A stretch of DNA of 64,000 nt, taken from the NCBI GenBank assembly GCA_964611205.1, contig CAZSZB010000004.1:12121-76120 (forward strand), given 5' to 3'. Positions 3,408-51,269 of this stretch are shown here, piece by piece. The DNA comes from an uncultured Candidatus Saccharibacteria bacterium (GTDB lineage Bacteria > Patescibacteriota > Minisyncoccia > Phycocordibacterales > UBA918). Numbering within the stretch: the stretch's first letter is position 1; every line of letters begins with the position of its first letter. The position numbers were made by a program, and so were the translations under genes. A model generated the notes under the pieces. That model ran no database searches, was not told the DNA's origin, and saw only the letters and a program-made list of their open reading frames with translations.

Positions 3408-3419
3408 CTTTAATATTTT

Positions 3420-4643: not shown

Positions 4644-4647
4644 AAAT

Positions 4648-6405
4648 ATGCATTTTAAAATACCAACTTTATCTAAAACACAAAGGGGTTTTAGTTTGGT
4701 TGAGGTTATAGTAGCCGCCTCCTTACTGGTGATTATTTTTGGAGGTCTGTTTTTAGGGTTTAAATATATGATTGAGTTGGTTAGTACAACTAAAGTTCAG
4801 TCTGGAGCTTTAGCGGTGGCAACTGACGAGATGGAATATTTACGATCTTTGTCTTATAACGAACTGGGTACTGTTGGCGGTGTACCAGCTGGAAATATTC
4901 CGCAAAATAGTACTACTACCTTAAATGGCATTGTCTATACACAGGAAATTCTTATTCAGTATGTAGATGATCCGGCTGATGGTTTAGAAGGGGCTGATGA
5001 AAATTCCATTACTACAGACTATAAGCAAGTAAAAGTGAAGGCGTCTTGGGATATTAAGGGTGTACCAGGATTTATTTCGTTGGTTTCCAATATTATTCCG
5101 GCTGGCATGGAAACAACCGTCGGCGGAGGAACAATTAAAGTAAATGTATTTGATTCTAAAGTCAGTCCTTTATCTGGTATACCAGTACGTTTCGTAAATA
5201 ATACTTCGTCAACTACTATCGATACCGTTCGCTATACTAATTCAAGCGGTGTAGCTTATCTTTCGGGTGCACCAGCGGCTGCTGATTACCAAATTTTTGT
5301 AAGTGACACAGGTTATTCTACTGACAGTACATACTTAGCGACGACAGCAAACCCAAATCCTAACACTCCACCAGTTGCGGTTTTAGAAAATCAGGTCTCG
5401 ACGATGAATTTTCAGATAGATAAGTTAAGTGATTTAACAATAACCACCGTAGCTCCTAGTACCGACGAAACTTTCTCTGATAATTTTGCAGACGTATCAA
5501 AATTATCTTCACTGTCTAACACGGTGGTTAGTAGCGGTAGCTTGATGCTCGCTGGTGGTCCTGGAGCTTACGCTGTTAATGGGTTGGCTGTCAGTAATCC
5601 GGTTGCCCCCGGCACGATAAAGGAATGGCAGGCAGTTGAATTTTCTGCCACTACCAGCTCTGCAACTGGGATAAAAATTTACATAATGTCTGACCATGGA
5701 GCTGGCTTAACTCTAGTATCAGACACTGATTTGCCTGGCAATAGTTCTGGCTTTTCTAATTCACCGATTGATTTGTCTAGTTTATCAGTAACTTCTTATC
5801 CCAATTTATCTTTACAAGCTGAACTTTCTTCAAGTGATGTTAATGATACCCCTTCTATAAATGATTGGTCTTTATCATATATTAAATCCCAGTCACCAAT
5901 AGCTGGAGTTGCGGTCTCTGTTTTAGGTAATAAGACTATCGGTACAAATGAAGGGGTTCCAGTTTTAAAACATGAATACTCTGGCTCTACTAATGCCTCA
6001 GGACAAATTAATTTGTCAGATATTGAGTATGACAGATATGCCATTGTGATTAATGGGAGTAGCTATGATGTAAGTGAGGCCTGTCCGCTCGTACCATATT
6101 CTCTTAGTCCAGACACTACCGGATCTATAAAGATGACGTTGGTACCGAAGCAGAACAATAGTTTGCGAGTGAGTGTTGTCGATTCTGCCGGTCAACCTAT
6201 ACCAAATGCAGATGTTCATCTTAAGAACACGGGCATCGATGAGTTAGAATCGTCCTCCTTGTGTGGTCAAGTTTATTTTGGTAATAGCTTGTATGAATCT
6301 AGTGATTACACACTGTCGGTGGGGGCTAATGGCTATTTGTCAGAAAATTTGATCGGCCTATCAATCAGCAGCTCTTCTAATATAAGTGTTATTCTAAGTC
6401 AGTAA
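4648..6405 (+). CDS. Large protein with a prepilin-type N-terminal cleavage/methylation leader (giant pilin or pseudopilin)
   Basis: The N-terminus KTQRG|FSLVEVIVAASLL fits the prepilin peptidase motif (Gly at -1, Glu at +5) followed by a hydrophobic helix. The 585-aa protein is Ser/Thr-rich. Confidence 0.7.
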   Translation: MHFKIPTLSKTQRGFSLVEVIVAASLLVIIFGGLFLGFKYMIELVSTTKVQSGALAVATDEMEYLRSLSYNELGTVGGVPAGNIPQNSTTTLNGIVYTQEILIQYVDDPADGLEGADENSITTDYKQVKVKASWDIKGVPGFISLVSNIIPAGMETTVGGGTIKVNVFDSKVSPLSGIPVRFVNNTSSTTIDTVRYTNSSGVAYLSGAPAAADYQIFVSDTGYSTDSTYLATTANPNPNTPPVAVLENQVSTMNFQIDKLSDLTITTVAPSTDETFSDNFADVSKLSSLSNTVVSSGSLMLAGGPGAYAVNGLAVSNPVAPGTIKEWQAVEFSATTSSATGIKIYIMSDHGAGLTLVSDTDLPGNSSGFSNSPIDLSSLSVTSYPNLSLQAELSSSDVNDTPSINDWSLSYIKSQSPIAGVAVSVLGNKTIGTNEGVPVLKHEYSGSTNASGQINLSDIEYDRYAIVINGSSYDVSEACPLVPYSLSPDTTGSIKMTLVPKQNNSLRVSVVDSAGQPIPNADVHLKNTGIDELESSSLCGQVYFGNSLYESSDYTLSVGANGYLSENLIGLSISSSSNISVILSQ

Positions 6406-6406
6406 A

Positions 6407-7039
6407 GTGATTATGACTGGTTTATTTAAAATGAAAAGAGTAAGGAAGCGGGGAATGACTTTGGTTGAAGTCATGGTTTCAGTCTCATTATTCACAATAA
6501 TAATGCTAGCGGTTACCAGTAGCATTGCCGCCTTGTATAAATACAATTCTTATACTATTTCACAAACGTACCAGGTTTATCACGCTAGAAGGGGAGTAGA
6601 ATCTTTGGTGCGTGATGTGCGAGAAATGACTTTTGCTGACGACGGTTCTTTTCCTTTAGCACGGATGGAGAATAATATTATAGGTTTTTATAGTGATATA
6701 GATCGCGATGATAGTGTTGAGTATGTAGAGTATGAGTTAGCGACTACAACTATTTTGTATAAAAGAGTTTACAACGCTACCGGAACGCCAGTCACTTACA
6801 ATTTAACAGAGCCAGATGAAATTCATGTTTTATCAGAGTATGTCCAAAATATGCTTCAGGGGACATCCACTTTCTTTTATTATGATAGGTCTGGTAATCT
6901 GGCAAATAGTTCTACTCGAGTAACTGATATTGGTTTTATCAGAGTACAGGCAATAGTGAACATTGATGCCGTTAAAAACCCTGGTCAATTTATGCTTCGT
7001 GGTAGTGCTGCTTTACGTAATATAATTAATAACTCATGA
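6407..7039 (+). CDS. Minor pilin-like protein with a prepilin-type leader
   Basis: The N-terminus KRG|MTLVEVMVSVSLFTI has Glu at +5 relative to the cleavage site. Confidence 0.65.
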   Translation: MIMTGLFKMKRVRKRGMTLVEVMVSVSLFTIIMLAVTSSIAALYKYNSYTISQTYQVYHARRGVESLVRDVREMTFADDGSFPLARMENNIIGFYSDIDRDDSVEYVEYELATTTILYKRVYNATGTPVTYNLTEPDEIHVLSEYVQNMLQGTSTFFYYDRSGNLANSSTRVTDIGFIRVQAIVNIDAVKNPGQFMLRGSAALRNIINNS

Positions 7040-8451
7040 GAATTAGTCATCACAACAAGGGCGCTCTTTTGATACTAGTCCTTATATTTGGAGCTATTTT
7101 TCTTACTCTGATAGTTGGTTTTATGAGAGTTGTATTAATTCAAGTAACAGTACAGAAGGAAATGACTCACTCTGCTCAAGCTAGAGAAATAGCTGAAGCT
7201 GGTCTTGATTATTACAAGTGGCGTTTAGCTCATTATCCAGACGATTTACAAAATGGAACGAATGCACCCGGTCCTTATGTGATGGTTTATGAAGATCCTG
7301 AATTAGGTCCGGTCGGTGAATTCTCCTTGGAATTTGCTAGCACTACTTATTGTGGAGATGTGAGTTCTATTGAAATTACCTCCACCGGACATACTTATGG
7401 TAATCCGGATGTGAAGCGTACAGTCTACGGTCGCTACGCCCGACCGACGGTGGCAGAGTACGCTTATATTATAAATTCCAACGTTTGGGCTGGAGATGAC
7501 CGAACGATTATTGGACCATATCACTCAAATGGTGGAATAAGAATGGACGGAGTTAATAATTCTATAGTGACATCTGGCCAGGAGACTTGGAAGTGTGATA
7601 GCAATTATGGCTGTAGCCCGACAAAACATAACGCTAATGGAGTGATTGGGGACGGACCGAATCATGATCTATGGTCTTTTCCTAGCACCCCAATTAACTT
7701 TACTGGTTTGACAGTTGATCTGGCAAATATGCAAGATAAAGCCAAGAATGGCGGCGGCGTTTATATTCCTCCGTCAGGTAAGCAGGGTTATAAAATAGTT
7801 TTGAAATCTAACGGCACTTTTGATTTATACGTAGTAAATAAAAAAGATAATGAACCACAAGGTAACGCTTGGGGGTATCGGCTAAATAAGATTAAAAATG
7901 CAAAATATGAAGGAAACTACAACATTTCAGCTTCTTGCCCATTAGTTTTCGTTGAAGATATGGTTTGGTTGGAAGGGGAAGTCTCTGGCTTGGTTACCAT
8001 CGCTGCCGCTGACGTTGATACAGTAGGATCTGACCCCTCCATGATATTAAATAACAACATAACTTATAGTTCTGATGAAGCTGGTCTATTAGCAATAGCG
8101 GAATACGATATGTTGGTGGGATTTGATGTTCCTAATAATATGGAACTCGAAGGTATCTTTGTCGCTCAAAATGGTCACTTTGGTCGTAATTTTTATAATG
8201 CCAATGATTTACCATCTGCATGGGATCAATATGTTAAACGTAATTCCTTAACCATTAATGGCACCATAGTCTCTAATGGCAGCGTTGGAACAAAATGGAT
8301 TTGCTACGCTTGGTGGCTCGGTGAACACTATTGTTCTGGTTTTGAAACTAGATTCAATTCGTACGATCGTAATCTAGTAGATAATCCACCGCCACTGGCA
8401 CCTCGTACTTCAGATGATTTTAAATTTGTTGAATGGCTAGAGGTGGAGTAG
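7036..8451 (+). CDS. Membrane-anchored protein, possibly a pilus tip or assembly component (PilX-like); function not established
   Basis: It has an N-terminal membrane helix after NKG|ALLIL, overlaps the preceding pilin gene, and is the last gene of the pilus block. Confidence 0.4.
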   Translation: MRISHHNKGALLILVLIFGAIFLTLIVGFMRVVLIQVTVQKEMTHSAQAREIAEAGLDYYKWRLAHYPDDLQNGTNAPGPYVMVYEDPELGPVGEFSLEFASTTYCGDVSSIEITSTGHTYGNPDVKRTVYGRYARPTVAEYAYIINSNVWAGDDRTIIGPYHSNGGIRMDGVNNSIVTSGQETWKCDSNYGCSPTKHNANGVIGDGPNHDLWSFPSTPINFTGLTVDLANMQDKAKNGGGVYIPPSGKQGYKIVLKSNGTFDLYVVNKKDNEPQGNAWGYRLNKIKNAKYEGNYNISASCPLVFVEDMVWLEGEVSGLVTIAAADVDTVGSDPSMILNNNITYSSDEAGLLAIAEYDMLVGFDVPNNMELEGIFVAQNGHFGRNFYNANDLPSAWDQYVKRNSLTINGTIVSNGSVGTKWICYAWWLGEHYCSGFETRFNSYDRNLVDNPPPLAPRTSDDFKFVEWLEVE

Positions 8452-19817: not shown

Positions 19818-19854
19818 AACAACAAGTTCGAGACCAGGTCTCGAACTTGTTGTT
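19818..19854 (-). terminator. Perfect 18-bp palindrome just 3' of the minus-strand gene; terminator or protein-binding site
   Basis: AACAACAAGTTCGAGACC, a single a, then GGTCTCGAACTTGTTGTT. Confidence 0.4.
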
Positions 19855-20828
19855 TAATAGGGGCGAGAGCCGAGTCGCTTGGCAATCCTGTAAAGTATGA
19901 AGAGTATTCCCAACAGAAAGACAATTTCTGTTATCACAGGAAAACCTAGAATAAAAGATAGGGCGGCCAACACCACAGTAAATAGAATAGAGAAAACATT
20001 ACCAAAAAAGGTTAAAAAATCGCCGAAAAACCCAGGGGGTTTTTCGGCACTTAATGACCGGTCTTTTTTGCTTATTCTTTCAACGTAACCAAAGCCGTCT
20101 TCATTTACCTCAATTATTCCATTCTCTCTATCTAACCTAGCTTGCCTTTGTTCCCGATAATCATCTAAATTTTCTTTTAGGTCATTTATATTATTAGTCA
20201 TTACTCCTAGTACCTGCCCAATCGGTTTATAGTTAGTAAATTGTTCTAGTCCAGGTTCGGTCTTGTTATTATCGTCGGTAGTATTCGTATCACTTATTAT
20301 TGGTGAGTCGTAGATTAGTGGGTTAGTACCAGCTTCTATTTCTTCTTTGTCACTTATACCGTCTCCGTCATCATCAGTGTCAGTCTGGTCACCGATCCCG
20401 TCTTGGTCAGTGTCTTTGTCTACAAATATTGTATCTTCAGCTAAGTTTAAGTTGGTAATAATATCGGTCCCCCTAGAGTTCGAAGTCGCCTTGAAGTGAG
20501 ATAATACAACTTTAATTGTTGAAGTTCCATAACTAGGCTGCCAATCTATCCAGCTATCAATAACTTGATCCGCCGCGGCTGTTATTGGATTTTTGCCAAT
20601 AGAATTATCATTAACAAAAAATTCTACAGTGCCGGTGAAGTCTGTTTTGGTATTGTTACGGACAGCAACATAAATTCTTGTTGGTACATCAGCCAGAATA
20701 TTTTCGGTATCGTACCAAAGACCATTAACTATTCCGACGTTAGAAGCTAATGCCAGGTTTGGAAATAGAAACACCAGAATACCTAGTGTATTTATTAACC
20801 ATCTCATTTTTTCATTATAACCTATCAA
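19854..20828 (-). CDS. Secreted and membrane-anchored protein with thrombospondin type-3-like calcium-binding repeats
   Basis: It has a signal peptide, a mid-region DKDTDQDGIGDQTDTDDDGDGISD (DxDxDG repeats), and two C-terminal transmembrane helices. Confidence 0.6.
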   Translation of the reverse strand: MIGYNEKMRWLINTLGILVFLFPNLALASNVGIVNGLWYDTENILADVPTRIYVAVRNNTKTDFTGTVEFFVNDNSIGKNPITAAADQVIDSWIDWQPSYGTSTIKVVLSHFKATSNSRGTDIITNLNLAEDTIFVDKDTDQDGIGDQTDTDDDGDGISDKEEIEAGTNPLIYDSPIISDTNTTDDNNKTEPGLEQFTNYKPIGQVLGVMTNNINDLKENLDDYREQRQARLDRENGIIEVNEDGFGYVERISKKDRSLSAEKPPGFFGDFLTFFGNVFSILFTVVLAALSFILGFPVITEIVFLLGILFILYRIAKRLGSRPY

Positions 20829-21053: not shown

Positions 21054-23228
21054 ATGGCACGAGCATTTCCACTGGATAGACTACGTAACTTCGGTATCGT
21101 TGCACACGTTGATGCCGGGAAAACAACAACATCAGAACGCATTCTTTTTTATACAGGAATGAGTCACAAAATGGGTGAGACCCACGACGGTACATCAATT
21201 ACTGACTGGATGGACCAAGAACGTGAGCGCGGTATTACTATTACTGCCGCTGCTATTTCTTGTAACTGGGCGAAAACTTTAGAGACTGATCGCACTAATA
21301 AAGACAAGATGTACAGTTTCAACATCATCGACACTCCTGGACACATCGACTTTACTGCCGAGGTAAAACGATCGATGCGCGTGCTCGACGGAGCAGTGGT
21401 TGTATTCGATGGGGCAGCAGGAGTAGAGCCACAGACTGAAACTAACTGGGGTTATGCCGACGAAGCTAGTGTGCCACGAATTTGTTTCGTCAATAAAATG
21501 GATAAATTAGGAGCTGATTTTGATGCTTCTGTAAAATCTATTGAAAATCGTCTTTCTAAAAAAGCTTGTCGTATTCAAATCCCAATGGGCTCAGAAAACA
21601 ATATGCGAGGTGTGATAGATCTGATCACTATGAAGGCCTATACTTTTGGCGGGGAAATGGGAATGGAAGTTAGCGAACAAGAAATTCCTGAAGAATTCAA
21701 AGCTGAGGCAGAAAAACGTCGCGCTGAACTTATCGAACGTGTAGTTGAACATGATGATGCTCTGATGGAAGCCTTTCTAGAAGGGAAGGAACCTTCTTTA
21801 GAGGATTTAAAGAAGACTCTTCGTAAAGCTGTTTTAGCTAACGAGATTTTCCCAGTGATGACTGGTACTGCTCTACAAAATGTTGGAGTGCAACTAATTC
21901 TTGATGCCGTGGTTGACTACCTCCCGTCGCCACTAGACCTGCCTGATACTGTAGGACATGATCCAAAAGACGAAGAAATTACATTAACTCGCAAGGCTTC
22001 TGACGAAGAACCAATGTCTGCTCTAGTTTTCAAACTCCAAGATGACAAGTTTGTTGGTCAATTAGCTTTCTTCCGAGTTTATTCTGGTGTTATTAAAAGT
22101 GGTACATATATCCTTAACGCTTCAACAGGTAACAAAGAGCGAGTAGGACGAATTGTCCGCTTGATGGCTGATAAACGGGAAGAGGTAGAAGAAGTGTATG
22201 CTGGAGAAATTGCTGCTGCCGTAGGTATTAAAGAAGTAAAAACATCACATACACTATGTGATGTCGATAAACCAATTCTACTAGAAACCATCACTTTCCC
22301 AGCTCCGGTGGTAGCAGTTCGGGTAGAACCAAAGACAAAGAACGACCAAGAAAAAATGGGTGTGGCTTTGAAGCGATTGGCTGATGAAGATCCGACATTT
22401 GTGGTCTCGACTGATGATGAAACATTAGAGACTATTATTGCTGGTATGGGTGAGTTACACCTAGACATTCTGATCGACCGTATGAAACGAGAATTTGGTG
22501 TTGAAGCAAATATTGGTCAACCACAGGTTGCTTACCGAGAAACTATTCAACGAGAAGCTGAAGCTGAACACAAATATATCAAACAATCTGGTGGTCGTGG
22601 ACAATATGGTCATGTTAAGATCCGTATTAAACCACTCGAACCCCTAGCTGAAGGGGAGACCGTAGCTAAGAATGTGACTCGCGAAGATCATTTCGAGTTT
22701 GTCAACAGTATTAAAGGCGGTACTATTCCACAAGAATATATTCCAGCAGTGATGAAGGGTTGTAGAGAGGCCATGGCTCGTGGTCAGGTAGCTGGTTATA
22801 AGATGGAAGATGTTTCCGTTGAATTGTTTGACGGTTCTTACCATGATGTGGACTCAAGCGAAATTGCCTTTAAATTGGCTGGTATTAACGCTTTCAAGGA
22901 AGCAGCTAAGAGAGCTAATGCGGTTATTCTTGAGCCGATAATGAAGGTTGAAGTGCGAACTCCAGAAGAATATATGGGAGATATTAACGGAAATATTTCT
23001 TCTAAGCGCGGACAAGTAGAGGCTTCAGAAGAATTGGGTGGAAAAACTATTGTTCACGCCAAGGTGCCTTTGTCTGAAATGTTTGGTTACACAAATACTT
23101 TGCGTTCTATGACACAGGGCCGAGCTTCAATGACAATGGAATTTGATCATTATGAAGTAGTGCCTCCAAACGTAGCCGAGGAGATTAAAAAAGCTCGAGG
23201 AGTTAAATCAGATGTTGAGACAGCTTAA
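21054..23228 (+). CDS. fusA: Elongation factor G
   Basis: The G-domain motif AHVDAGKTTTSE is present in a 724-aa protein. Confidence 0.95.
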   Translation: MARAFPLDRLRNFGIVAHVDAGKTTTSERILFYTGMSHKMGETHDGTSITDWMDQERERGITITAAAISCNWAKTLETDRTNKDKMYSFNIIDTPGHIDFTAEVKRSMRVLDGAVVVFDGAAGVEPQTETNWGYADEASVPRICFVNKMDKLGADFDASVKSIENRLSKKACRIQIPMGSENNMRGVIDLITMKAYTFGGEMGMEVSEQEIPEEFKAEAEKRRAELIERVVEHDDALMEAFLEGKEPSLEDLKKTLRKAVLANEIFPVMTGTALQNVGVQLILDAVVDYLPSPLDLPDTVGHDPKDEEITLTRKASDEEPMSALVFKLQDDKFVGQLAFFRVYSGVIKSGTYILNASTGNKERVGRIVRLMADKREEVEEVYAGEIAAAVGIKEVKTSHTLCDVDKPILLETITFPAPVVAVRVEPKTKNDQEKMGVALKRLADEDPTFVVSTDDETLETIIAGMGELHLDILIDRMKREFGVEANIGQPQVAYRETIQREAEAEHKYIKQSGGRGQYGHVKIRIKPLEPLAEGETVAKNVTREDHFEFVNSIKGGTIPQEYIPAVMKGCREAMARGQVAGYKMEDVSVELFDGSYHDVDSSEIAFKLAGINAFKEAAKRANAVILEPIMKVEVRTPEEYMGDINGNISSKRGQVEASEELGGKTIVHAKVPLSEMFGYTNTLRSMTQGRASMTMEFDHYEVVPPNVAEEIKKARGVKSDVETA

Positions 23229-23365: not shown

Positions 23366-24367
23366 ATGTCTTCATCAACTCGGGTGTTCCTGTTTACTGT
23401 CGTAGCTTTGTTTATCTCAGCCATTGCACTTTTGTCTGTTGCTATAGCGAGTGCAGATGTTGGTCCCTTTGATCAGCCTGTGGAAATGTCTGGCTATGCT
23501 TGGAGTAGTAATGTCGGCTGGATATCCCTAAACTGCTCTAATGATAGTTCTTGTGCTACATCAGACTACAAAGTAAGAATAAACACCGATTATACAGTCA
23601 CCGGCTATGCTTGGAGCAGTAACGTTGGTTGGATTAAATTTGGTGGTCTTTCTGGTATGCCGGCTAGTGGCGGACAAGCCCAGATAAACAATGACCGAGA
23701 TCAAATGACTGGTTGGATAAGAGCTTGCTCAGCTACCGACGCTGGTGATTGTACTGGAGGATTAGACCCTGATGGTGGTGGTTGGGATGGTTGGATTTCT
23801 TTAAATTGTTCTAATAACAGCGGTTGTGCCACTTCCAATTACGCTACTACTGTAGGAGTAGGTAGTTTTGGTAATTACGCCTGGGGCGGTGATGTTATTG
23901 GTTGGGTAAGCTTTGCTACAGCTGATTTCACTCAACCATGTACCCCCGCTCTGGCTTGTAATGCTGAAAATAATGGCTATGCTATTAACAATCAATGGTG
24001 TGAATCAGAGGCGCCAGTTAGCTGTGCGGGTAATGAATATTGTTATGACACTGTAGGTTGTAAGTTAGTAGATATTAACTATCAATTTTCTGTCAATCAA
24101 TTATTAGTTAAAAAAGAAGGGAAAGTTACTTTAGATTGGTCAGTTGATGGAGCTGATGTATCACAATGTAAGGTGACTGGTAACAACAATGATTCCTGGA
24201 TTGGTCTAACTGATGAGAGCGTATCTGGTGGAGTAGCAATTGTGTCTAGTCCTTTAACTAGACAGGTAACAGCCTTTACTCTTAGTTGTGTTCCAGCCGG
24301 TGGTGGTAGTTTCTATGATTTGAAAACTATTGAAGTTAACCTAGTACCAACGATAATCGAAAGCTAA
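23366..24367 (+). CDS. Secreted Trp-rich repeat protein
   Basis: It has a signal peptide and three repeats of the type GYAWSSNVGWI(S/K)(L/F)..C.. Confidence 0.55.
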   Translation: MSSSTRVFLFTVVALFISAIALLSVAIASADVGPFDQPVEMSGYAWSSNVGWISLNCSNDSSCATSDYKVRINTDYTVTGYAWSSNVGWIKFGGLSGMPASGGQAQINNDRDQMTGWIRACSATDAGDCTGGLDPDGGGWDGWISLNCSNNSGCATSNYATTVGVGSFGNYAWGGDVIGWVSFATADFTQPCTPALACNAENNGYAINNQWCESEAPVSCAGNEYCYDTVGCKLVDINYQFSVNQLLVKKEGKVTLDWSVDGADVSQCKVTGNNNDSWIGLTDESVSGGVAIVSSPLTRQVTAFTLSCVPAGGGSFYDLKTIEVNLVPTIIES

Positions 24368-24368
24368 C

Positions 24369-24677
24369 ATGCAAATAATTCGTAATTTTTTCACAAAGTA
24401 CCAAATATCTATCCTTATTTTATCTAATATATTGATATTGATTACTATTTGTTTGGTTTTATATGGTTGGTATTATCTCTATACTTCAAACCTGACGAGC
24501 CATAAGTTTTTTGGAATAGATGACGATTCAGAATCAAGTGAGATTGAAGAAAAGACATCTCAAAAAATAACTCTTGAAGATAAAAAAGCTTTATTGGAAA
24601 AACTAGAAGGCAATCCCGATAATGTGTCAATTGAAGATAAACGAAAATTATTATCGACTCTCCAGTCGTCTGAGTAA
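24369..24677 (+). CDS. Small membrane protein with an acidic, Ser-rich tail
   Basis: 102 aa with a single transmembrane helix. Confidence 0.4.
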   Translation: MQIIRNFFTKYQISILILSNILILITICLVLYGWYYLYTSNLTSHKFFGIDDDSESSEIEEKTSQKITLEDKKALLEKLEGNPDNVSIEDKRKLLSTLQSSE

Positions 24678-24699
24678 GTTCTATTTTAAATAAAATATA

Positions 24700-24900
24700 A
24701 CCATGAAAACCCTCACCACCAGCCTCATAAAAATCTCCATCATCCTCACCATCGTCACGGTCGCTTTCGCCGTCAACTACATCCAAGCTGCTTGGTCCGC
24801 TCCACAGAACAACCCACCAGATGGCAACACCCCAGCTCCCATTAACACCGGCAGCGAAGCCCAGGTGAAAGAAGGAGCTTTATCAGTTGATGGATTAGTA
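24700..24900 (+). repeat. Copy 1 of the ~195-bp 5' module (signal peptide plus conserved stalk start)
   Basis: About 90% DNA identity to copies at 25471, 26148, 28146 and 28900. Confidence 0.8.
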
Positions 24901-25398
24901 TCCCACTCTAACAACAACATCTTTGTGGGTGCCGGGGAACAAGAATTTTATGTCAAACCCGGGTTTAAGGGTGAGGTACAGACTAGTGGATATACTACGA
25001 TAGGTACTTCTTCAGGTACTGTGTATACACCTAATGACTTTGAGGTAGGAGGTCAAGTACGAGCTAGTCAGTATTGTGATGAGAATGGGGCTAATTGTTT
25101 AAGTGGTGGGGGGTCATCAGGCGAAAATGGAGTGTTGGGAGGCGGTTGGCCAGTTTTTTTTGTGTGTGAAACACGGAGCGATTTTAAAAGTTTATTCATT
25201 TTATTAAAAATGAACCCATCGACCGTAGTATACGGGACTTTCAATGTGTCCCAAGCAGACAGAACTTCTACTTGGCATTCGTACGTTTATTTTAACAAAT
25301 TAGACAGAAACCCTACAGGATCTGGAGATTATGCCCCGCCGTCATGTGCAAAAAACATGGATACCTTGATCAGTGAAGGAAAGGCCATTTTCAATTAA
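24703..25398 (+). CDS. Paralog A of the island family: shared N-terminal module with a unique C-terminal domain
   Basis: N-terminus MKTL..IKISIIL.IVTVAFAVNYIQAAWSAPQNNPPDGNTPAPIN.G.EAQVKEGALSVDGL. Confidence 0.7.
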   Translation: MKTLTTSLIKISIILTIVTVAFAVNYIQAAWSAPQNNPPDGNTPAPINTGSEAQVKEGALSVDGLVSHSNNNIFVGAGEQEFYVKPGFKGEVQTSGYTTIGTSSGTVYTPNDFEVGGQVRASQYCDENGANCLSGGGSSGENGVLGGGWPVFFVCETRSDFKSLFILLKMNPSTVVYGTFNVSQADRTSTWHSYVYFNKLDRNPTGSGDYAPPSCAKNMDTLISEGKAIFN

Positions 25399-25461
25399 TA
25401 TTTTATTTTTAGCTAAACAGAAATCTTAAGCAAAAATCACAATATAACAGTTCATTTTAAT

Positions 25462-26142
25462 TTGATAACAACCATGAAAACCCTCCCCCACACCATCATA
25501 AAAATCTCCATCATCCTCACCATTGTCACGGTTGCTTTCGCCGTCAACTATCTCTACGCTGCTTGGTCCGCCCCACAGAACAACCCACCAGATGGCAACA
25601 CCCCAGCTCCCATCAACGCTGGTACTGAAGCCCAAGTGAAAGAAGGAGCTTTGTCGGTGGATGGGTTAACTTCGTATGCCAATAACAACATTTTTGTTGG
25701 TGCAGGAGGTCAACAATTCTCTATCAAGCCAGGGTTTAAGGGCAATACACAAACTAGTGACTATACAACAATTGGTGACGCCTCTAGTACAGTCTATATT
25801 TTAGGCAGTTTAGAAGTAGAAAATAGCAACGGTACAGGCAGTGATTATTTGTGGCGCTATGAGAATTTTGATGAAGATATTTACCCTTCTTTTTTTCCAG
25901 GTATTTGTGCTTATGGGTTGAATTGGAAATGTCCCGGCTGGGACAAAGTAATGTGGAAACAACCTCCAGCTAGTAGAGATACTTGTAATCAAAATATTAA
26001 CGGACCATACACATGCGCTGTAAATGAGAGTAAGACATGTAACGATGTAATTAAGGCGTGTGATCATTCGGGCGAACCTTGTGGTTATTCTGAAAGTATA
26101 GTGACTTGTAAAAAGTTAAAAACTCCCTACGTGATAGAATAA
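25462..26142 (+). CDS. Paralog B of the island family, with a Cys-rich C-terminal domain
   Basis: It carries the same N-terminal module; the probable start is MKTLPH at 25474. Confidence 0.7.
   Translation: MITTMKTLPHTIIKISIILTIVTVAFAVNYLYAAWSAPQNNPPDGNTPAPINAGTEAQVKEGALSVDGLTSYANNNIFVGAGGQQFSIKPGFKGNTQTSDYTTIGDASSTVYILGSLEVENSNGTGSDYLWRYENFDEDIYPSFFPGICAYGLNWKCPGWDKVMWKQPPASRDTCNQNINGPYTCAVNESKTCNDVIKACDHSGEPCGYSESIVTCKKLKTPYVIE
25471..25670 (+). repeat. Copy 2 of the 5' module
   Basis: Near-identical DNA. Confidence 0.8.
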
Positions 26143-26147
26143 TAAAT

Positions 26148-26345
26148 ATAATGATAAAAACCCTCCCCCACACCATCATAAAAATTTCCATCATTCTCGG
26201 CATCGTCACGGTAGCTTTCGCCGTCAACTACATCCAAGCTGCTTGGTCCGCCCCACAGAACAACCCACCAGATGGCAACACCCCAGCTCCCATCAACGCT
26301 GGTACTGAAGCTCAAGTGAAAGAGGGAGCTTTGTCGGTGGATGGG
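26148..26345 (+). repeat. Copy 3 of the 5' module
   Basis: Near-identical DNA. Confidence 0.8.
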
Positions 26346-26747
26346 TTGGCTGTTTTCGGAAATATGATTATTTCTGGAAGTACAATTATTGGCAGCACTA
26401 CCTTGCCGTCAAGCGACATTACCTTGGGTGTGGATGGTTCAATAGGAGCCACGTCGTATTTATATACTTCAGATAAGAACTTAAAAACAAACATTAAAAC
26501 AGTAGCTGGTCTTGATACAGTTAAACAGCTGCGCGGAGTATCCTTTAACTGGAAAAAAAATGGTAAGAAATCTGTAGGTCTTATTGCTCAGGAAGTAGAA
26601 GAAGTGTTTCCAGAATTGGTCACCACTACAGACAGTGGACTCAAATATGTTGAGTACGGAAATTTAATTGCGCCACTTATTGAAGCTATTAAGGAACAAC
26701 AAATTCAAATTAATCAGTTACAGGCAGAACTGGATACTTTGAAATAG
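26151..26747 (+). CDS. Paralog C of the island family, with a C-terminal intramolecular-chaperone domain of the phage tail-fibre/endosialidase (peptidase S74) type
   Basis: The C-terminus SDKNLKTNIKT..LRGVSFNWKK..GLIAQEVEEVFPELV..KYVEYGNLIAPLIEAIKEQQ matches the S74 auto-chaperone consensus. Confidence 0.7.
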   Translation: MIKTLPHTIIKISIILGIVTVAFAVNYIQAAWSAPQNNPPDGNTPAPINAGTEAQVKEGALSVDGLAVFGNMIISGSTIIGSTTLPSSDITLGVDGSIGATSYLYTSDKNLKTNIKTVAGLDTVKQLRGVSFNWKKNGKKSVGLIAQEVEEVFPELVTTTDSGLKYVEYGNLIAPLIEAIKEQQIQINQLQAELDTLK

Positions 26748-26750
26748 AAT

Positions 26751-28109
26751 ATGGTGAATAAAATTTTTATAAAAAAATTTATAGTTCCTATCGCTATCTT
26801 TGTTTTAATTTTACCCATTGGCGTATGGGCTTTGGGAATAGTAGAAGAGGGTTTCTTAGTCAATAATTCAGAAGTAGCAATAGATGCCCACGGTACGTGT
26901 AAAAAAGTAAAAGCTAATGATGGCCGAGAATACTTTGTTCCGACCAAAGGTATAGATGAATGGAGTTCCTTCTTAGAAAATACACCAGTTGGGATGACTC
27001 TTTCAGAATGTATTGATTTTTCTGATCAAGTTGAGTTCATTACTAGTTTTAGCTGTCCCAATCCCTATCATTATATGAGATGTGGTTTGGTGGGTGTTAC
27101 TGATTCTATTACTAGTGATGGTGGATATATATATGCTTTTGAAGATGGGTATAACGGATCATATTCTTCACAAAAATTGCACATATACAAATATAATAAA
27201 GATACAAAATCTGTTTCACTTGTGGAGACAATAAAAAATCTTGGTAATTATCCTAAATGGATAGAGAGTTTTGCTATAAACTCCGATGGTAGTCGAATTT
27301 TACTTACTAGAAGACAAGATGTCGCCGGAGGAACATCTTCATTTTATATTTATGCATTTGATGGTGTGAATGCTAATTTACTTTACACAGGTTCTTATAA
27401 GGGAGGATTTAGCCACAACGTTTCTGCTATAAATGAGGATGGTACCGTGGTGGCTTTTCAAGGAAGAATTTATGAAAAAAACGGATCTACCTATGATGAG
27501 GTGTTTGATAATGGATTTCATGGAGCATTAGCATCCAATGACCCACAACAAAGTCACATAGGTGCAAATCTATATCTTGGTGATGATAGTTTTTATCTCT
27601 TTAAAAGAGAGGGGAGGGGAGACATTGTACAAAAACAGTCTGATGGGTCATGGCAAGTTATACAGTCAATTTTACCAAGTGTAAATAACAAATGGCAGGC
27701 TAGTTTTGCTGCTGTTTCTAACGATTATTCACTTATGGCTATTAACTCAAAAAAGGATTCTTCTTCTAATTATAAATCTGATATTTATAAAAAGAATGAG
27801 TCTGGCCCTGGCTACACCAAGTTGGGCACTATCGACTTGGGAGACCTGCAAAGACATACGGTTGAATTTTCAGCTGCCGGAAGATATTTTATTTCAGCTG
27901 GAAAGACCTGGAACATAGACCCTATGTTAGAAGGTGGTTCGCCGATTGTAGTTAAATCAACGGCAAACTGGATGGATTCTTATAGTACTTCTCAGTTTGG
28001 TTATGCTCATGAGAATAGTCTAGGAGATATTGTGGTAGCAAGGCCAGATATAAATGGTGGAGCTAAATTTTCTGGAAAATTTTATATATACAAGCGACTT
28101 CCCAATTAG
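26751..28109 (+). CDS. Secreted protein with beta-propeller-like repeats
   Basis: It has a signal peptide and repeated SDGS/EDGT..V beta-strand motifs. Confidence 0.5.
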   Translation: MVNKIFIKKFIVPIAIFVLILPIGVWALGIVEEGFLVNNSEVAIDAHGTCKKVKANDGREYFVPTKGIDEWSSFLENTPVGMTLSECIDFSDQVEFITSFSCPNPYHYMRCGLVGVTDSITSDGGYIYAFEDGYNGSYSSQKLHIYKYNKDTKSVSLVETIKNLGNYPKWIESFAINSDGSRILLTRRQDVAGGTSSFYIYAFDGVNANLLYTGSYKGGFSHNVSAINEDGTVVAFQGRIYEKNGSTYDEVFDNGFHGALASNDPQQSHIGANLYLGDDSFYLFKREGRGDIVQKQSDGSWQVIQSILPSVNNKWQASFAAVSNDYSLMAINSKKDSSSNYKSDIYKKNESGPGYTKLGTIDLGDLQRHTVEFSAAGRYFISAGKTWNIDPMLEGGSPIVVKSTANWMDSYSTSQFGYAHENSLGDIVVARPDINGGAKFSGKFYIYKRLPN

Positions 28110-28145
28110 GGTATTAGTAATGTTATTATAGAACATATAAATAAA

Positions 28146-28345
28146 ATAATGAAAACCCTCCCCCACACCATCATAAAAATCTCCATCATCCTCGGCATCG
28201 TCACGGTCGCTTTCGCCGTCAACTACATCCAAGCTGCCTGGTCTGCCCCACAGAACAACCCACCAGATGGCAACACCCCAGCTCCCATCAACGCTGGTAC
28301 TGAAGCCTAAGTGAAAGAAGGAGCTTTGTCGGTGGATGGGTTAAC
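28146..28345 (+). repeat. Copy 4 of the 5' module
   Basis: Near-identical DNA apart from the C-to-T change that creates the stop. Confidence 0.8.
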
Positions 28346-28841
28346 TTCGTATGCCAACACTAATATATTCATTGGTGCTAATAATCAAAGTCTCGAAATT
28401 AAACCTGGCTCAAAAGGCTCTGTTAGTGCCGCCGGCTACACTACTCTTGATGTGGTTGGTGCCAACGGCACTCTCTACACTCCTAAAGACTTAGAAGTAG
28501 GAGGTCAGGTACGAGCTGGTCAGTATTGTGATGAGAATGGGGAGAATTGTTTGACTGGCGGGGGGCCATCAGGCGGAACTCCAATCACTTATTCTGTAAC
28601 TGTGAGGTATCCACAGGATAAGAGTGGTAGCAGTGCAACAAAGTTGATCACTTCAAATGCTGGTTTTTTCATGTGTGCCTTGACCACACACCAAACTATA
28701 TATTATGAGACTTTTGGTTCAGATAACTTGGATGAGTATTGCAAAATCACCTATAATGGAAGTTCTGATGATTGGACATTGACTGGTAGAATCGTTGATA
28801 CAGTGCAGGCTCGGATAACATGCACTATGACCTGTCGTTAA
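28149..28841 (+). pseudogene. Paralog D of the island family, interrupted by an in-frame TAA at codon 54
   Basis: At 28308-28310 the codon GAA GCC TAA replaces GAA GCC CAA (EAQ) found in the other copies. The downstream frame continues with VKEGALSVDGL. Confidence 0.6.
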
Positions 28842-28896
28842 TAAATTAATTATGTACCACTGTACATGATAAAATAAAATTACAGTCTAATCTAAA

Positions 28897-29566
28897 GTGA
28901 TAATGAAAACCCTCCCCCACACCATCATAAAAATCTCCATCATCCTCGGCATCGTCACGGTCGCTTTCGCCGTCAACTACATCCAAGCTGCCTGGTCTGC
29001 CCCACAGAACAACCCACCAGATGGCAACACCCCAGCTCCCATCAACGCTGGTACTGAAGCCCAAGTGAAAGAAGGAGCTTTGTCGGTGGATGGGTTAACT
29101 TCGTATGCCAATAACAACATTTTTGTTGGTGCAGGAGGTCAACAATTCTCTATCAAGCCAGGGTTTAAGGGTGGGGTGGAGACTGGAGGGTATGTGACTT
29201 TAGACCCGTCAGGGACAAGTAGTTCTCTTTATGTTCCTGATAATTTGGGGGTGGGAGGGCAGGTGAGAGCCGGTCAGTATTGTAATGAAGATGGTATCGT
29301 GTATTGATGGAGGGAGTGTTATAGGTACACTGTCGACTCATAATTTTACCATAAGGGGTTACGATGGTGAAAGTCAGTCTATGAATGTGGGGGAATATAG
29401 CTTCTGTGCTTTAACACGTGTTGAAATTTTTGATGATGGTGGGGCACGAGGGTGGCCAACGGAAGGATGTTATTTAAGTCGCTCCGGAAATAACTGGACA
29501 ATGACGGCAACTAATAATTACGGAGGATCGCCGGATATTACGAGATGTGAAGCCACTTGTTTTTAA
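28897..29566 (+). pseudogene. Paralog E of the island family, split by a frameshift near 29293-29295
   Basis: The N-terminal module plus ..GGQVRAGQYCNEDG then shifts frame; the next frame reads ..VSCIDGGS.., homologous to NCLTGGG of paralog D. Confidence 0.55.
28900..29100 (+). repeat. Copy 5 of the 5' module
   Basis: Near-identical DNA. Confidence 0.8.
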
Positions 29567-29858: not shown

Positions 29859-31049
29859 ATGTCAGATTTTGATCGTTCAAAGCCGCACGTAAACGTTGGA
29901 ACTATTGGTCACGTTGACCATGGTAAAACAACTCTTACGGCTGCGATTCTAACTACCCTAAAAGCTCACGAGAGCGAGGGTTACAGTGCTAACGTTAAAG
30001 ACGTTGGTGATATTGATAAAGCCCCAGAAGAAAAGGCTCGTGGTATTACTATTTCTCTTTCTCACTCTGAGTACGAGACTCCTAATCGTCACTACGCGCA
30101 CATTGATGCTCCTGGTCACGCCGACTACATTAAGAACATGATTACTGGTGCCGCCCAGATGGATGGTGCTGTACTTGTAGTAGCTGCTACTGATGGTGCT
30201 ATGCCACAAACTCGTGAGCACGTACTATTGGCCAAGCAAGTTGGTGTACCTAGTATCATTGTTTTCCTAAACAAATGTGATCTAGTTGATGATGAAGAGA
30301 TGCTCATGCTAGTAGAAGAAGAGCTTCGTGAACTTCTAACTGCTAACAAATTTGACGGAGAAAATGCTCCGATCATACATGGTTCTGCTCTAAAGGCTTT
30401 AGAGGGAGATGCCGAATACCAAGCTAAAATTATTGAATTGGCTAATGCGATGGATTCATTCTTCCCAGAACCAGTTCGTGAGCTTGATAAACCTTTCCTA
30501 ATGCCAGTAGAAGACATCTTCTCTATTGAAGGACGCGGTACAGTAGTAACTGGTCGTGTAGAGCGAGGTAAGGTTAAGGTAGGAGAAGAAATCGAAATTG
30601 TTGGAATCAAGAATACTGTTGTCACAACTGTGACTGGTGTTGAGATGTTTAATAAACAACTTGATGCAGCTCAAGCTGGAGACAATGCTGGTATTTTGCT
30701 ACGAGGTACTAAAAAAGAAGATGTACACCGTGGTCAGGTTCTAGCTGCTAAAGGTTCTGTTACTCCACATACTGAATTTGAAGCCGAAGTGTACATACTT
30801 TCAAAAGATGAAGGTGGTCGTCACACTCCTTTCTTCTCAGGTTATAAGCCTCAGTTCTATATTCGTACAACTGACGTAACAGGAGACGTTACGCTAGCTG
30901 AAGGAACAGAAATGGTTATGCCAGGAGACACTGCAACTTTCAAAGTAAAGCTAGTATCTCCAGTAGCTCTAGAGGAACAACAAAGTTTTGCTATTCGTGA
31001 AGGAGGTAAGACAGTGGGAGCTGGTGTTGTAACCAAAATAGTCGCTTAA
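29859..31049 (+). CDS. tuf: Elongation factor Tu
   Basis: The protein starts [25 protein letters not shown]. The ORF-track start at 29748 is an in-frame upstream extension. Confidence 0.95.
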
Positions 31050-38782: not shown

Positions 38783-39445
38783 ATGTCAGAACAAAAAAAG
38801 CAGGAAGCTACAATGGAAGTCGAGACTGCGAACAACGCAGTTCCTACTCCAGACACTGATACAAAGACTGTATCGACTGATGCACCCGCTGCTGACGAGT
38901 CTAAGCAGAGTGCGAGACCACAGCGAGGACGCGGCGGTAATCGAAGTGGGGGTGATAATCAACGCAATCCACGTCGTCCTCGACGAGGTGGTCGCGGAGG
39001 AGAGCGAGTTCGCCAAGAATTTGATCAAAAAATCGTTAGTATCCGTCGCGTAACTCGTGTTATGGCAGGAGGACGACGTTTCTCCTTCTCAGTTTCGATG
39101 GTTATTGGTGATAAGAAGGGAAGAGTGGGAGTTGGTATTGGAAAAGCTGGAGATACTCAATTAGCTATTGAAAAATCAGTTCGTAATGCTAAGAAAAATA
39201 TGATCACTGTTCCTCTTAACAAAGATGGACACATACCACACGATGTACACACAAAAATTTCTTCTAGTGAAGTTATGATAATACCGGCTCCAGGCCGCGG
39301 TTTGGTTGCTGGTTCTTCTGTCCGTACAGTTTTGGAATTGGCGGGAGTAAAAGATGTTACAGCAAAGATATTTTCTCGCAGTAAGAATAAACTTAATAAC
39401 GCTCGTGCTACTGTCGAAGCACTTAAGCAATTAAAGAACGAATAA
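38783..39445 (+). CDS. rpsE: Ribosomal protein S5 with a ~75-aa Arg/Gly-rich N-terminal extension
   Basis: The S5 core begins near IVSIRRVTRVMAGGRRFSF. The preceding tail is low-complexity RGG/RRPRR. Confidence 0.9.
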   Translation: MSEQKKQEATMEVETANNAVPTPDTDTKTVSTDAPAADESKQSARPQRGRGGNRSGGDNQRNPRRPRRGGRGGERVRQEFDQKIVSIRRVTRVMAGGRRFSFSVSMVIGDKKGRVGVGIGKAGDTQLAIEKSVRNAKKNMITVPLNKDGHIPHDVHTKISSSEVMIIPAPGRGLVAGSSVRTVLELAGVKDVTAKIFSRSKNKLNNARATVEALKQLKNE

Positions 39446-39447
39446 GT

Positions 39448-39897
39448 ATGCAGTTACACGAATTAAAACCAACCAAAGTTCGCAAAGTGGCCAAGCGTGT
39501 TGGTCGTGGTGGTAAACGCGGAAAAACTTCTGGCCGTGGTCATAAAGGTCAGAAAGCTCGTGCTGGTAACAGTACTCGTCCTGAAATGCGAGACTTCATT
39601 AAGAAATTACCTAAGTTGCGAGGACATGGTATCAACCGAGCTAAAACTGTAAACGCAGATAAGTTATCTATAACGGTAGTTAATCTAAGTCGTTTAGAAG
39701 CCATGTTAGAAAACAATTCACCCGTAAATCCTAAGTCTTTAGTGACTGCAGGCGTAGTTGCTTCAGTTAGAAAAAAAGCTCCTGTAGTTAAGATTTTGGG
39801 AAATGGTGAAGTTACCAAAAAATTCATAGTTACTAATTGTCAGGTCTCTGCGACAGCTAAAGAAAAGATTGAAAAGGCTGGAGGAAGCGTTGCTTAG
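39448..39897 (+). CDS. rplO: Ribosomal protein L15
   Basis: The protein starts MQLHELKP and starts 3 nt after the rpsE stop. Confidence 0.9.
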   Translation: MQLHELKPTKVRKVAKRVGRGGKRGKTSGRGHKGQKARAGNSTRPEMRDFIKKLPKLRGHGINRAKTVNADKLSITVVNLSRLEAMLENNSPVNPKSLVTAGVVASVRKKAPVVKILGNGEVTKKFIVTNCQVSATAKEKIEKAGGSVA

Positions 39898-50483: not shown

Positions 50484-50664
50484 GGTCACGTATTACTAAG
50501 TATATTATTTCGCTTTGCTCATAATTTACTAAGTGTTCTCGACCCGGCCTCGCCGACAAGCACTCCCTTCGGTCGTCTTGTGTACCGGCTCCGGCTTTCA
50601 ACTCCCCTCATACTCTCACAAACGCAAAGACTCCAAAAGCTTACACTTTTGGAGTCTGCGTATT

Positions 50665-51060: not shown

Positions 51061-51269
51061 CCAGCCGTGCTTTTTGTAAATATATAGCTAGTTTTAAAAA
51101 TAGCTAAGTCATCTGTTAAGTGCATAAAAAATGTGATTCGAATTACAAAAAGTACGGCTGGGGAAGTATGTGCTGATTTGGATACAGAGAGATGGTGCGC
51201 AACCTGACGAGGATTGTCTGGTTGCGCAAAGGTGTGCGAAGAGCGTCTAGCTAGGACCGCTCCTGATGG

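Follow-up and report, generated by a model that had tools for sequence, protein, structure and literature searches.

The window analysed here is a stretch of 64,000 nucleotides (nt) from an uncultured Candidatus Saccharibacteria bacterium (contig CAZSZB010000004.1, positions 12,121 to 76,120). It includes a group of fibre genes lodged between fusA and tuf. Five of these, paralogues A to E, share a short N-terminal part, the N-module, behind a signal peptide, and only one of them, paralogue C, ends in an S74 intramolecular chaperone domain. The gene downstream of C, g452, encodes a protein with a Cys-bracketed domain, referred to here as FIPTK, and a beta-propeller. The explanation we favour, with moderate confidence, is that C gives rise to a very short trimeric fibre on the cell surface, which acts as a socket for the FIPTK adhesin. 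The insert and its boundaries are as follows (lengths in amino acids, aa):

21054..23228, + strand: fusA (EF-G), upstream boundary of the insert
23366-29566, + strand: the fibre genes, i.e. the whole fusA-tuf insert
23366..24367, + strand: g333, a secreted protein with GYAWSSNVGWI repeats
24369..24677, + strand: g102, a small membrane protein inside the cluster
24703..25398, + strand: paralogue A, 231 aa, intact; N-module, stalk ending QYCDENGANC and a tip of ~98 aa, without S74
25474..26142, + strand: paralogue B (P0062), 222 aa, intact; N-module, stalk and Cys-rich tip, without S74
26151..26747, + strand: paralogue C, the mini-fibre precursor, 198 aa, complete, with its stop codon at 26745-26747
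26751..28109, + strand: g452, the partner gene, beginning 3 nt past the stop codon of C
28149..28841, + strand: paralogue D, disrupted by an in-frame TAA (28308-28310) at Gln54
28903..29566, + strand: paralogue E, split by a frameshift near 29294-29300, right after QYCNEDG
29859..31049, + strand: tuf (EF-Tu), downstream boundary of the insert

Paralogue C itself can be divided into the following parts, assigned from sequence rules, alignments and a monomer model calculated with AlphaFold2 (AF2):

26151..26243, + strand: aa 1-31, signal peptide with a predicted signal-peptidase I site between A31 and W32 (sequence rules, AF2)
26244..26348, + strand: aa 32-66, N-module, WSAPQNNPPDGNTPAPINAGTEAQVKEGALSVDGL, common to all five paralogues
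26349..26468, + strand: aa 67-106, short Gly/Ser/Ile-rich stalk ending ...ITLGVDGSIGATSYLYT (alignment)
26469..26486, + strand: autocleavage motif S107-D-K-N-L-K112, with the putative scissile bond between T106 and S107 and K112 as general base (invariance, alignment to S16 and T5)
26469..26744, + strand: aa 107-198, S74 intramolecular chaperone, including helix 169-197, a predicted coiled coil (Pfam, PHROG, PDB, AF2, Foldseek)

The identification of the S74 domain is far beyond chance. In a Pfam profile search PF13884 (Peptidase_S74) matches residues 107-158 of C with E=5.8e-18 and 65.4 bits, the gathering cut-off being 22 bits, and the match covers profile positions 1-58 of 58, i.e. the entire model. 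Forty-two PHROG tail-fibre or baseplate families match C at residues ~80-198 (best E=5.4e-33) and align to it via their own extreme C-terminal ends. A tblastn search of phage records gave 741 that match C only at residues ~85-198, and the S74 part is 43-55% identical to the C-termini of many phage tail fibres. The best sequence relative in the PDB is 6f45_A (E=1e-4, residues 102-198), the distal long tail fibre subunit of Salmonella phage S16 (PMC7917993). The AF2 model, built on 34 homologues, has a predicted local distance difference test score (pLDDT) of ~90 for residues 110-198 and places the terminal helix at 169-197. With this model Foldseek returned only two meaningful matches, the ICA domain of MyRF (7dc3, E=3.7e-5, prob 1.0) and the endosialidase intramolecular chaperone (3gw6, prob 0.97-1.0). 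The domain occupies the extreme C-terminus of C, from residue 107 to the last residue, 198. The same position is typical elsewhere: we scanned 159 related loci locally with hidden Markov models (HMMs), 80 of them found through S74 and 79 through the N-module alone, and in 91 S74 open reading frames (ORFs) from such loci the domain ends almost always 0-20 residues from the stop codon.

C is a bona fide member of the S74/ICA family and shows its profile match, Ser/Lys motif, C-terminal position and predicted fold. The first-pass annotation of this DNA had proposed as much from the letters alone, and Pfam, PHROG, PDB and Foldseek agree with it. Taken alone, the match is a routine annotation and already on record: an identical protein is present in NCBI, JGI and ENA, with PF13884 precomputed there (P0001), and is called on the ENA contig k141_1627734 (224 kb). 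Relatives of C appear in public records as 'tail fiber domain-containing protein [Patescibacteria group bacterium]'. The closest homologues come from metagenome-assembled genomes (MAGs) of Taylorbacteria, Paceibacteria, Falkowbacteria, Saccharibacteria and other Patescibacteria.

The residues expected to carry out autocleavage are also in place. Ser107, Asp108 and Lys112 (Ser+5) are invariant in alignment A1, which comprises 34 full-length homologues of C of 170-235 aa. SYLYT-SDKNLK of C aligns with DLNVS-SDRRIKK of 6f45_A (DLNVSSDRRIKK), and the aligned site of S16 gp37 is an experimentally known autocleavage site (PMC7917993). In T5 pb1 the cut lies between Thr1263 and Ser1264, with Lys1269 as partner (PMC4690869), and the T-S-D-x-x-x-K geometry of C has the same spacing. 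The Ser before DKNLK had been put forward as the cleavage residue on first inspection; the profile search against PF13884 and the look at the Ser/Lys dyad proposed with it gave a significant match and a conserved pair. Because C is a bona fide S74 chaperone with the catalytic Ser and Lys, it very probably forms a trimer and removes its own last 92 residues.

The N-terminus of C looks like that of an exported protein. In the AF2 model residues 7-31 make up a single long helix. Among 142 family representatives, 136 have Ala immediately ahead of the invariant Trp (position -1) and 127 have V, A or L at -3, while the 18 residues ahead of the site are hydrophobic (mean Kyte-Doolittle 1.7) in the same set. 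A Lys or Arg occurs within the first 12 residues in 133/150 representatives. We infer from these patterns that aa 1-31 form a classical Sec signal peptide which is cleaved off. A type IV prepilin leader was considered and rejected, as there is a classical A-x-A signal-peptidase I site and no G-F-T-L-I-E with cleavage after the G.

Between the N-module and the cleavage site of C lie only ~40 residues, and ~75 residues per chain would remain once the signal peptide and the S74 domain are removed. The first-pass annotation pictured a shared N-terminal module followed by a variable middle region, whose distal part would determine specificity. The modular organisation stands for the family. C, with its ~40 residues, has no real variable middle region and its own distal part cannot be the specificity determinant. 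The likely specificity element of C is the product of the next gene, g452.

The g452 protein consists of a signal peptide, the FIPTK domain (aa ~40-88, CKKV..YFVPTKGIDEWSSF..C) and a 7-bladed beta-propeller (aa ~120-450). FIPTK has ~50 residues bracketed by Cys, with the pattern C-x-x-V-x-N...(Y/I)-F-(I/V)-P-T-K-T-x-x-E-W-x-x-F...P-x-G-(V/I)-x-x-x-x-C, in which E-W and F are nearly invariant. No match to it was found in Pfam, PHROG or phage records (tblastn), nor was it found in IMG/VR, and a profile search of the PDB returned only a chance match (E=1.5). The full-length g452 protein has no NCBIfam match and only 3 close relatives. The C-termini of FIPTK proteins are variable and of adhesion type: TSP_1 is found in 5/31, followed by Gly_rich_2, DUF1554, Fib_succ_major, Lcl_C and Ig-like domains.

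FIPTK genes are linked to S74 genes. Among the 90 S74 ORFs of the related loci with room downstream, 23 are directly followed by a FIPTK gene on the same strand, with a gap of -73 to +71 nt. The proportion is 11/18 for genes with both N-module and S74, vs 12/72 for S74 genes without an N-module, and no FIPTK gene directly follows any of 55 N-module genes without S74. Conversely, an S74 gene directly precedes 25 of 34 FIPTK genes. The FIPTK loci are L005, L007-L009, L011, L014, L021-L024, L028, L029, L035, L041, L054, L090, L094, L136, L137, L155, L157 and L159. They extend beyond the Candidate Phyla Radiation (CPR), the S74-FIPTK pair being present in Bdellovibrio (L021) and in Omnitrophota (L022); the S74 genes without an N-module that show it include those of Bdellovibrio sp. 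HCB-162, Bdellovibrionales and proteobacterial MAGs. Small S74 genes followed by weak FIPTK-like ORFs were also seen on contigs binned as DPANN archaea, at L006 6981-7909 (Woesearchaeota MAG) and L018 9590-12290 (Nanoarchaeota MAG); these could reflect transfer between episymbiotic lineages or CPR contigs that are mis-binned.

The presence of FIPTK goes with the residues that cleavage would leave at the end of the stalk. The four residues before the scissile Ser were scored for the motif [FYW]-x-[YHF]-x; in C the cut would follow S-Y-L-Y-T. The motif is present in 20/22 S74 proteins with FIPTK immediately downstream vs 16/62 of those without (Fisher p=9e-8), and in 25/27 vs 11/57 when FIPTK may lie anywhere within 2 kb (p=9e-11). 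With the 2-kb criterion the association persists both in S74 proteins that have no N-module (14/16 vs 10/51, p=1.6e-6) and in those that have one (11/11 vs 1/6, p=1e-3). Such a pattern is expected if FIPTK recognises the surface that would be exposed by removal of S74.

A second repeated association is with g333, whose product has four G(Y/W)AWSxNxGWI(x)F repeats and a C-terminal Ig-like part, and no Pfam or NCBIfam match. Homologues of 300-980 aa (e.g. L002 8287-9591, L032 7176-8429, L123 8917-9888 and L138 8449-9438) lie within 1.5 kb of an N-module gene in 37/42 cases. A g333-like gene is present in 24 of 40 independent metagenomic loci of at least 5 kb that were found through the N-module alone. 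The order g333, one or more N-module genes without S74, an N-module gene with S74, and FIPTK recurs in L094, L136, L137, L155 and L157, as in the window. For g102 a homologue search found none, and there is no Pfam match.

The five copies of the N-module in the window are conserved at the DNA level. Over their first 195 nt they are 87-99.5% identical, at the following positions obtained by DNA comparison:

24703-24897, + strand: module of A
25474-25668, + strand: module of B
26154-26348, + strand: module of C
28149-28343, + strand: module of D
28903-29097, + strand: module of E

Their G+C content is 52-54%, vs 40% for the window. The similarity begins exactly at the start codon, the upstream DNA being at background (~33%). 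In C it stops abruptly after ...SVDGL, the next 150 nt showing 27-32% identity; at the protein level residues 1-66 are all that C has in common with A, B, D and E. Since the 5' modules are so similar and the boundaries of homology are sharp, the pattern points to concerted evolution, gene conversion or recombination at a constant 5' cassette.

Downstream of the module A, D and E share a further stalk of ~68 residues ending L-E-V-G-G-Q-V-R-A-G-Q-Y-C-D-E-N-G-x-N-C, followed by Cys-containing tips of ~90 residues that are mutually unrelated; B diverges earlier. Pfam matches none of A, B, D and E, and NCBIfam neither A nor B. D has CAA changed to TAA at Gln54, a Gln in every other copy, in a 5' module that is otherwise 99.5% conserved. 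The lesions of D and E could mean decaying copies, silent cassettes or assembly errors. Reassignment of the stop codon in D was rejected, since neighbouring genes use TAA as their ordinary stop and there is an intact allele with Gln. This allele is P0053, from another metagenome (an ENA contig of 4,981 bp). It is identical to D through ...GGQVRAGQYCDENGENC and then carries an unrelated tip of 84 residues, and the comparison with D is direct sequence evidence of tip exchange at the QYCDENGENC junction.

The same junction appears where C has its chaperone. We used hhalign to set the stalks of proteins lacking S74 (A, D, E, P0053 and four other family members that have the YCD junction) against the pre-S74 stalks in A1. 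It aligned the terminal rung L-x-V-x-G-x-V-x-A-x-x-Y with a probability of 64% and E=6e-5, and placed the junction's Tyr-Cys on the aromatic residues preceding the scissile Ser. In the closest related locus, L138 (EF-Tu 88% and S10 90% identical to the window), the single N-module protein aligns to residues 21-104 of C (57% identity, E=3e-25). Past 104 it continues with Q-Y-C-D-Q-D-G-N-N-C and a tip, where C has Y-T-S-D and S74. These alignments moderately support the view that the paralogues without S74 share the last stalk rung and then carry a Cys-rich tip in place of the chaperone. From the S74 domain of C the first-pass annotation had concluded that the whole family forms trimeric fibres. 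The conclusion is very probably right for C as a bona fide S74 protein and does not by itself carry over to A, B, D and E, because only C has S74 and it shares only residues 1-66 with them. By analogy these four may also be trimeric.

Beyond the window the N-module belongs to a large family. The motif WTGPxxxPPxGNxxAPxNxGxxxQxKxGxL follows the signal peptide and its site between A and W. A profile of 46 positions was compared using HMMER with 1.84 billion representative proteins, clustered at 50% identity, and matched 7,855 clusters at E<=1e-3 and 1,822 at E<=1e-10. The match lies practically always at residues ~20-70, right behind the signal peptide, in proteins mostly of 100-500 aa. No Pfam or NCBIfam model matched the N-module, and C as a whole has no NCBIfam match either. 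Of 150 N-module representatives about 120 have no Pfam domain at all. Among the annotated partners in the remainder, domains known from trimeric phage fibres come first: Peptidase_S74 (12), phage Collar (3), Gp34_trimer (1), BppL_N (1) and Collagen (1), further partners being Gly_rich_2 (6), HCBP_related (5) and Shufflon_N (1). Like the stalk alignments above, these partners moderately support one kind of stalk for members with and without S74. In GTDB loci, nearly all labelled Patescibacteria, the module heads S74-terminated ORFs of 168-941 aa as well as ORFs without S74, and in homologues of 300-940 aa it precedes long fibre-like regions. The sequences describe a modular family with a shared N-terminal part and variable C-terminal parts. 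Many of its proteins (consensus A4, 150 proteins) carry a second segment, LAVFGNxxxxGxxxYLNFGxTxGxxGYGxRDNxGxxExKNxxGxW, which is absent from the window paralogues and matched by no Pfam model.

Some S74-terminated proteins in Oligoflexia/Bdellovibrionales MAGs start with a type IV prepilin-like leader (..GFSLIEVMIVIGIV.., at L039 5206-6288 and L033 2264-3319). Together with the Shufflon_N partner, these leaders hint that in some lineages pili may carry S74 fibres.

The chromosomal setting is that of cellular genes. The order rpsL-rpsG-fusA-[fibres]-tuf-rpsJ places the fibre set inside the str operon, and gene content identifies the following further features of the window:

32-1447, - strand: nusA
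1650-8451: type IV pilus cluster
8547 and 9316: tpi and pgk
10946 and 13573: recJ and comEC
18532 and 19162: rpsL and rpsG
19854-20828, - strand: surface-type ORF of 324 aa between rpsG and fusA, with signal peptide, TSP3 repeat and C-terminal membrane segment
31119 onwards: rpsJ and the S10-spc operon up to secY
38783-39445 and 39448-39897: rpsE (S5) and rplO (L15), 2 nt apart
50663-51061, - strand: tmRNA

No phage-like gene was found within at least 15 kb either side of C. A pattern scan of 2.9 million IMG/VR contigs, with tblastn confirmation, did not find the N-module, nor did it turn up in phage records, where tblastn with C matched the S74 part only; residues 1-~65 of C have no PHROG match. 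Because translation genes flank C, and neither the N-module nor FIPTK was found in IMG/VR or phage records, C is a cellular chromosomal gene and not a phage gene. The N-module family as a whole is apparently cellular. There is no rpmD (L30) between rpsE and rplO. Loss of L30 is a hallmark of the CPR, and its absence here is consistent with a CPR genome. The assignment to the CPR draws on this absence together with the taxonomy of the homologues and the kind of genes present. A scan of 20.8-31.2 kb for promoters and terminators gave nothing better than shuffled sequence.

The ORF at 19854-20828 (- strand), with its bacterial TSP3 (calcium-binding) repeat, is another surface protein lodged in the str region. 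The pilus cluster, ~15 kb upstream, encodes a PilB-like ATPase (T2SSE and MshEN), PilC (T2SSF), a pilin-like protein of 585 aa with an N_methyl motif and Ig-like/CarboxypepD_reg domains, another pilin-like protein of 210 aa and an ORF of 471 aa without a Pfam match.

The position of the insert is shared by related genomes. Twelve of the 40 N-module loci (L083, L092, L094, L099, L104, L108, L110, L120, L121, L123, L125 and L138) likewise have g333 and N-module fibre genes inserted between fusA and tuf, all on the same strand. Across these twelve, EF-Tu is 74-88% and EF-G 65-77% identical to the window proteins. The insert itself varies: L138 has only g333 and one fibre gene there, the window eight genes. 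Because 12/40 loci share the placement at 74-88% EF-Tu identity, it is old and conserved in a diverged CPR clade.

These observations can be assembled into the following scheme. C would be exported by the Sec system and its signal peptide removed between A31 and W32, as sequence rules predict. The S74 domain (aa 107-198) would trimerise via its terminal helix and template the short beta-stalk of aa 67-106. Ser107, activated by Lys112, would then cut the bond between T106 and S107 and the chaperone trimer would depart, leaving a stub of ~75 residues per chain made of the N-module and one stalk rung. The peptides expected from this processing are a stub end ...GATSYLYT and a chaperone start SDKNLK or WSAPQNNPPDGNTPAPINAGTEAQVK. 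Family membership is observed and the activity is deduced from it; we hold trimerisation driven by S74, with autocleavage at this bond, to be highly probable. The aromatic C-terminal tip S-Y-L-Y-T exposed by the cut could dock the FIPTK domain of g452, which would make C the socket for a separately encoded beta-propeller adhesin. Gene linkage and the motif association lead us to propose this docking tentatively, at a little under an even chance. The N-module would keep the stub attached to the cell, perhaps by way of the g333-like repeat protein, a step suggested by association and more tentative again. A, B, D and E would use the same N-module and terminal rung with their own exchangeable Cys-rich tips replacing S74. 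A role in host-cell attachment is plausible by analogy with the MAT fibres compared below and in view of the episymbiotic way of life.

Several points weigh against this scheme. Fibres are not usually as short as the ~75 residues of the mature stub. The AF2 monomer is uninformative for residues 32-105, with pLDDT ~40-55; such low values are as expected of a fold that may form only in the trimer and are not positive evidence of one. In T5 (Arg1250, ~14 residues upstream) and K1F an auxiliary Arg from the adjoining chain aids catalysis, while residues 90-106 of C (ITLGVDGSIGATSYLYT) hold no Arg or Lys. An Arg at -8 occurs in some homologues of C (..NVRATGFYYTSD), and in C it may come from elsewhere or be dispensable. 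For the FIPTK domain AF2 resolves no fold (pLDDT <50), and FIPTK has no detectable sequence similarity to gp38, the phage adhesin discussed below. The counts and p values given above for the tip motif and FIPTK ignore phylogeny, and they come from S74 loci ranked by similarity to C and a FIPTK profile seeded from g452. Finally, 67/90 S74 genes have no adjacent FIPTK gene, so that the chaperone does not need FIPTK.

The last two kinds of observation, the missing gp38 similarity and the many S74 genes standing without FIPTK, would sit well with a simpler arrangement in which C is a self-contained short spike or adhesin, S74 serves only to fold the trimer, and the FIPTK protein is co-regulated rather than docked, an independent secreted adhesin or anchor, as its own signal peptide and adhesion-type domains would allow. 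This arrangement is at odds with the near-zero spacing and the specificity of FIPTK for S74 genes (23/90 vs 0/55), with the co-variation of FIPTK presence and the four residues of the new C-terminus, and with the lack of a recognisable binding domain in cleaved C; we regard it as unlikely, and as the strongest competitor of the socket scheme. A different role for the cut is suggested by MyRF, whose ICA domain is the best structural match of the C model. The N-terminal helix, which AF2 draws as one long helix, might be an uncleaved membrane anchor and autocleavage a switch for release or maturation, the active product being the freed chaperone trimer or the membrane stub rather than a fibre; the very small size of the processed N-terminal part would fit. 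Such a switch is very unlikely given the near-perfect signal-peptidase pattern (Ala at -1 in 136/142, V/A/L at -3, invariant Trp at +1), the homologues of 300-940 aa in which the N-module stands ahead of long fibre-like regions, and the lack of a membrane segment after S74.

It might also be supposed that C is a prophage remnant, or an acquired tail-fibre fragment fused by chance to a cellular leader and without a dedicated function. The identity of its S74 part to phage tail-fibre C-termini and the 42 matching PHROG families agree with such an origin. Yet an architecture of ~200 aa recurs in dozens of genomes with invariant catalytic residues, in conserved synteny with g333, FIPTK, fusA and tuf, the N-module was not found in viral contigs, and the surroundings of C hold no phage genes for at least 15 kb on either side. 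We consider this extremely improbable, and a prophage or tailocin reading of C was rejected on genomic context.

To our knowledge, how the ultrasmall CPR/Patescibacteria recognise and hold their hosts is largely unexplained beyond type IV pili. The fibre tips of the present family may take part in host recognition. Since the fibre set sits inside the str operon, as in many related genomes, the fusA-tuf insert is suggestive of a core, highly expressed surface structure. Four features together suggest such a structure with a specificity that evolves fast: an adhesin architecture of phage/Bdellovibrio type, a place in the most conserved operon, concerted evolution of the 5' module, and swapping and decay of tips. 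A wider proposal, which we put forward as doubtful, is that the insert encodes an undescribed, CPR-wide modular surface organelle for host attachment and host range of episymbionts, with the S74-FIPTK socket shared with Bdellovibrionota, Omnitrophota and possibly DPANN archaea. Its parts would be a platform of g333 type, fibres with a 35-residue N-module and exchangeable tips, and the S74-processed stub as a socket for an exchangeable FIPTK adhesin. If the S74-FIPTK pair is what we propose, it would represent a two-component adhesin principle outside phages and provide handles for host prediction of uncultured episymbionts. A search of the accessible literature turned up no paper that connects S74 proteins, tail-fibre-like proteins or intramolecular chaperones with Patescibacteria. 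The novelty appears to lie in the N-module family itself, which is CPR-wide and has a fixed position within the str operon, in its association with g333 and in the coupling of S74 to FIPTK.

C can be compared with three groups of known proteins. With the chaperones of endosialidases, T5 pb1 and the phi29 and GA-1 appendages, and with the ICA of MyRF (PF13884; 3GW6, 4UW8, 7DC3), it shares the domain, the predicted fold, the Ser/Lys spacing, the position of S74 at the extreme C-terminus behind a beta-rung and a C-terminal helix suited to a trimeric coiled coil. Unlike these systems, the matured C of ~75 residues has no enzymatic or receptor-binding domain, its gene is on a cellular chromosome and the auxiliary Arg is not recognisable. 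With its ribosomal and translation neighbours and residues 1-~65 that match no PHROG, C is not a virion tail fibre.

The second comparison is with gp37 and gp38 of T2 and S16. In S16 the gp37 chaperone is removed by autocleavage, which 'exposes the Gp38 docking surface'; Gp38 itself joins a conserved N-terminal domain for attachment, in which tryptophans are critical, to a variable part that binds the receptor (PMC7917993). The arrangement in the window is alike in that a chaperone is predicted to be autocleaved ahead of SDxxxK, 6f45_A being the best PDB sequence match of C, that the cut would expose a docking surface, and that the next gene, after a gap of 3 nt, encodes a conserved N-terminal domain with a nearly invariant Trp and a variable C-terminal binding part. 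It differs in the absence of a virion: C and g452 both appear to be exported by Sec and would assemble outside the cell. FIPTK has no detectable gp38 homology and its docking is suggested by linkage and motif.

The closest parallel in a cell is provided by the mosaic adhesive trimer (MAT) fibres of Bdellovibrio, in which 13 S74 and 8 non-S74 members share an N-terminal domain (PMC10769870). The tips of the latter 'substitute for the S74 chaperone' (Caulton et al. 2024, PMC10769870), examples being Bd3182 (S74) and Bd2133/Bd1334 (non-S74) (PMC10769870). By this analogy families of mixed S74 and non-S74 members can be trimeric adhesins. Like the MAT proteins, those of the window form a cellular, paralogous, secreted family with a shared N-terminal part behind the signal peptide; some members end in an SDxxxK S74 chaperone and others in exchangeable tips at that position; the last rung resembles the V-G-G/N-pi-x-x-P-x-x-x-L capping motif; and the organism lives on or in other cells. 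In contrast, the N-module of ~35 aa is unrelated by profile to the beta-rich MAT N-domain of ~130 aa. The N-module HMM matched none of the S74 fibre ORFs of Bdellovibrio/Bdellovibrionales with all filters off, and identity with the MAT N-domain was rejected at this maximum sensitivity. MAT proteins have ~1000 aa and form long trimeric beta-helical fibres, whereas those of the window have 200-230 aa, C itself having 198 aa with ~40 residues of stalk and its relatives 168-941 aa. The organism is here a monoderm CPR bacterium with the genes fixed in its str operon and with g333-like and FIPTK partner genes. C thus works like the MAT fibres without being a MAT member, as it has another N-terminal domain and is far smaller.

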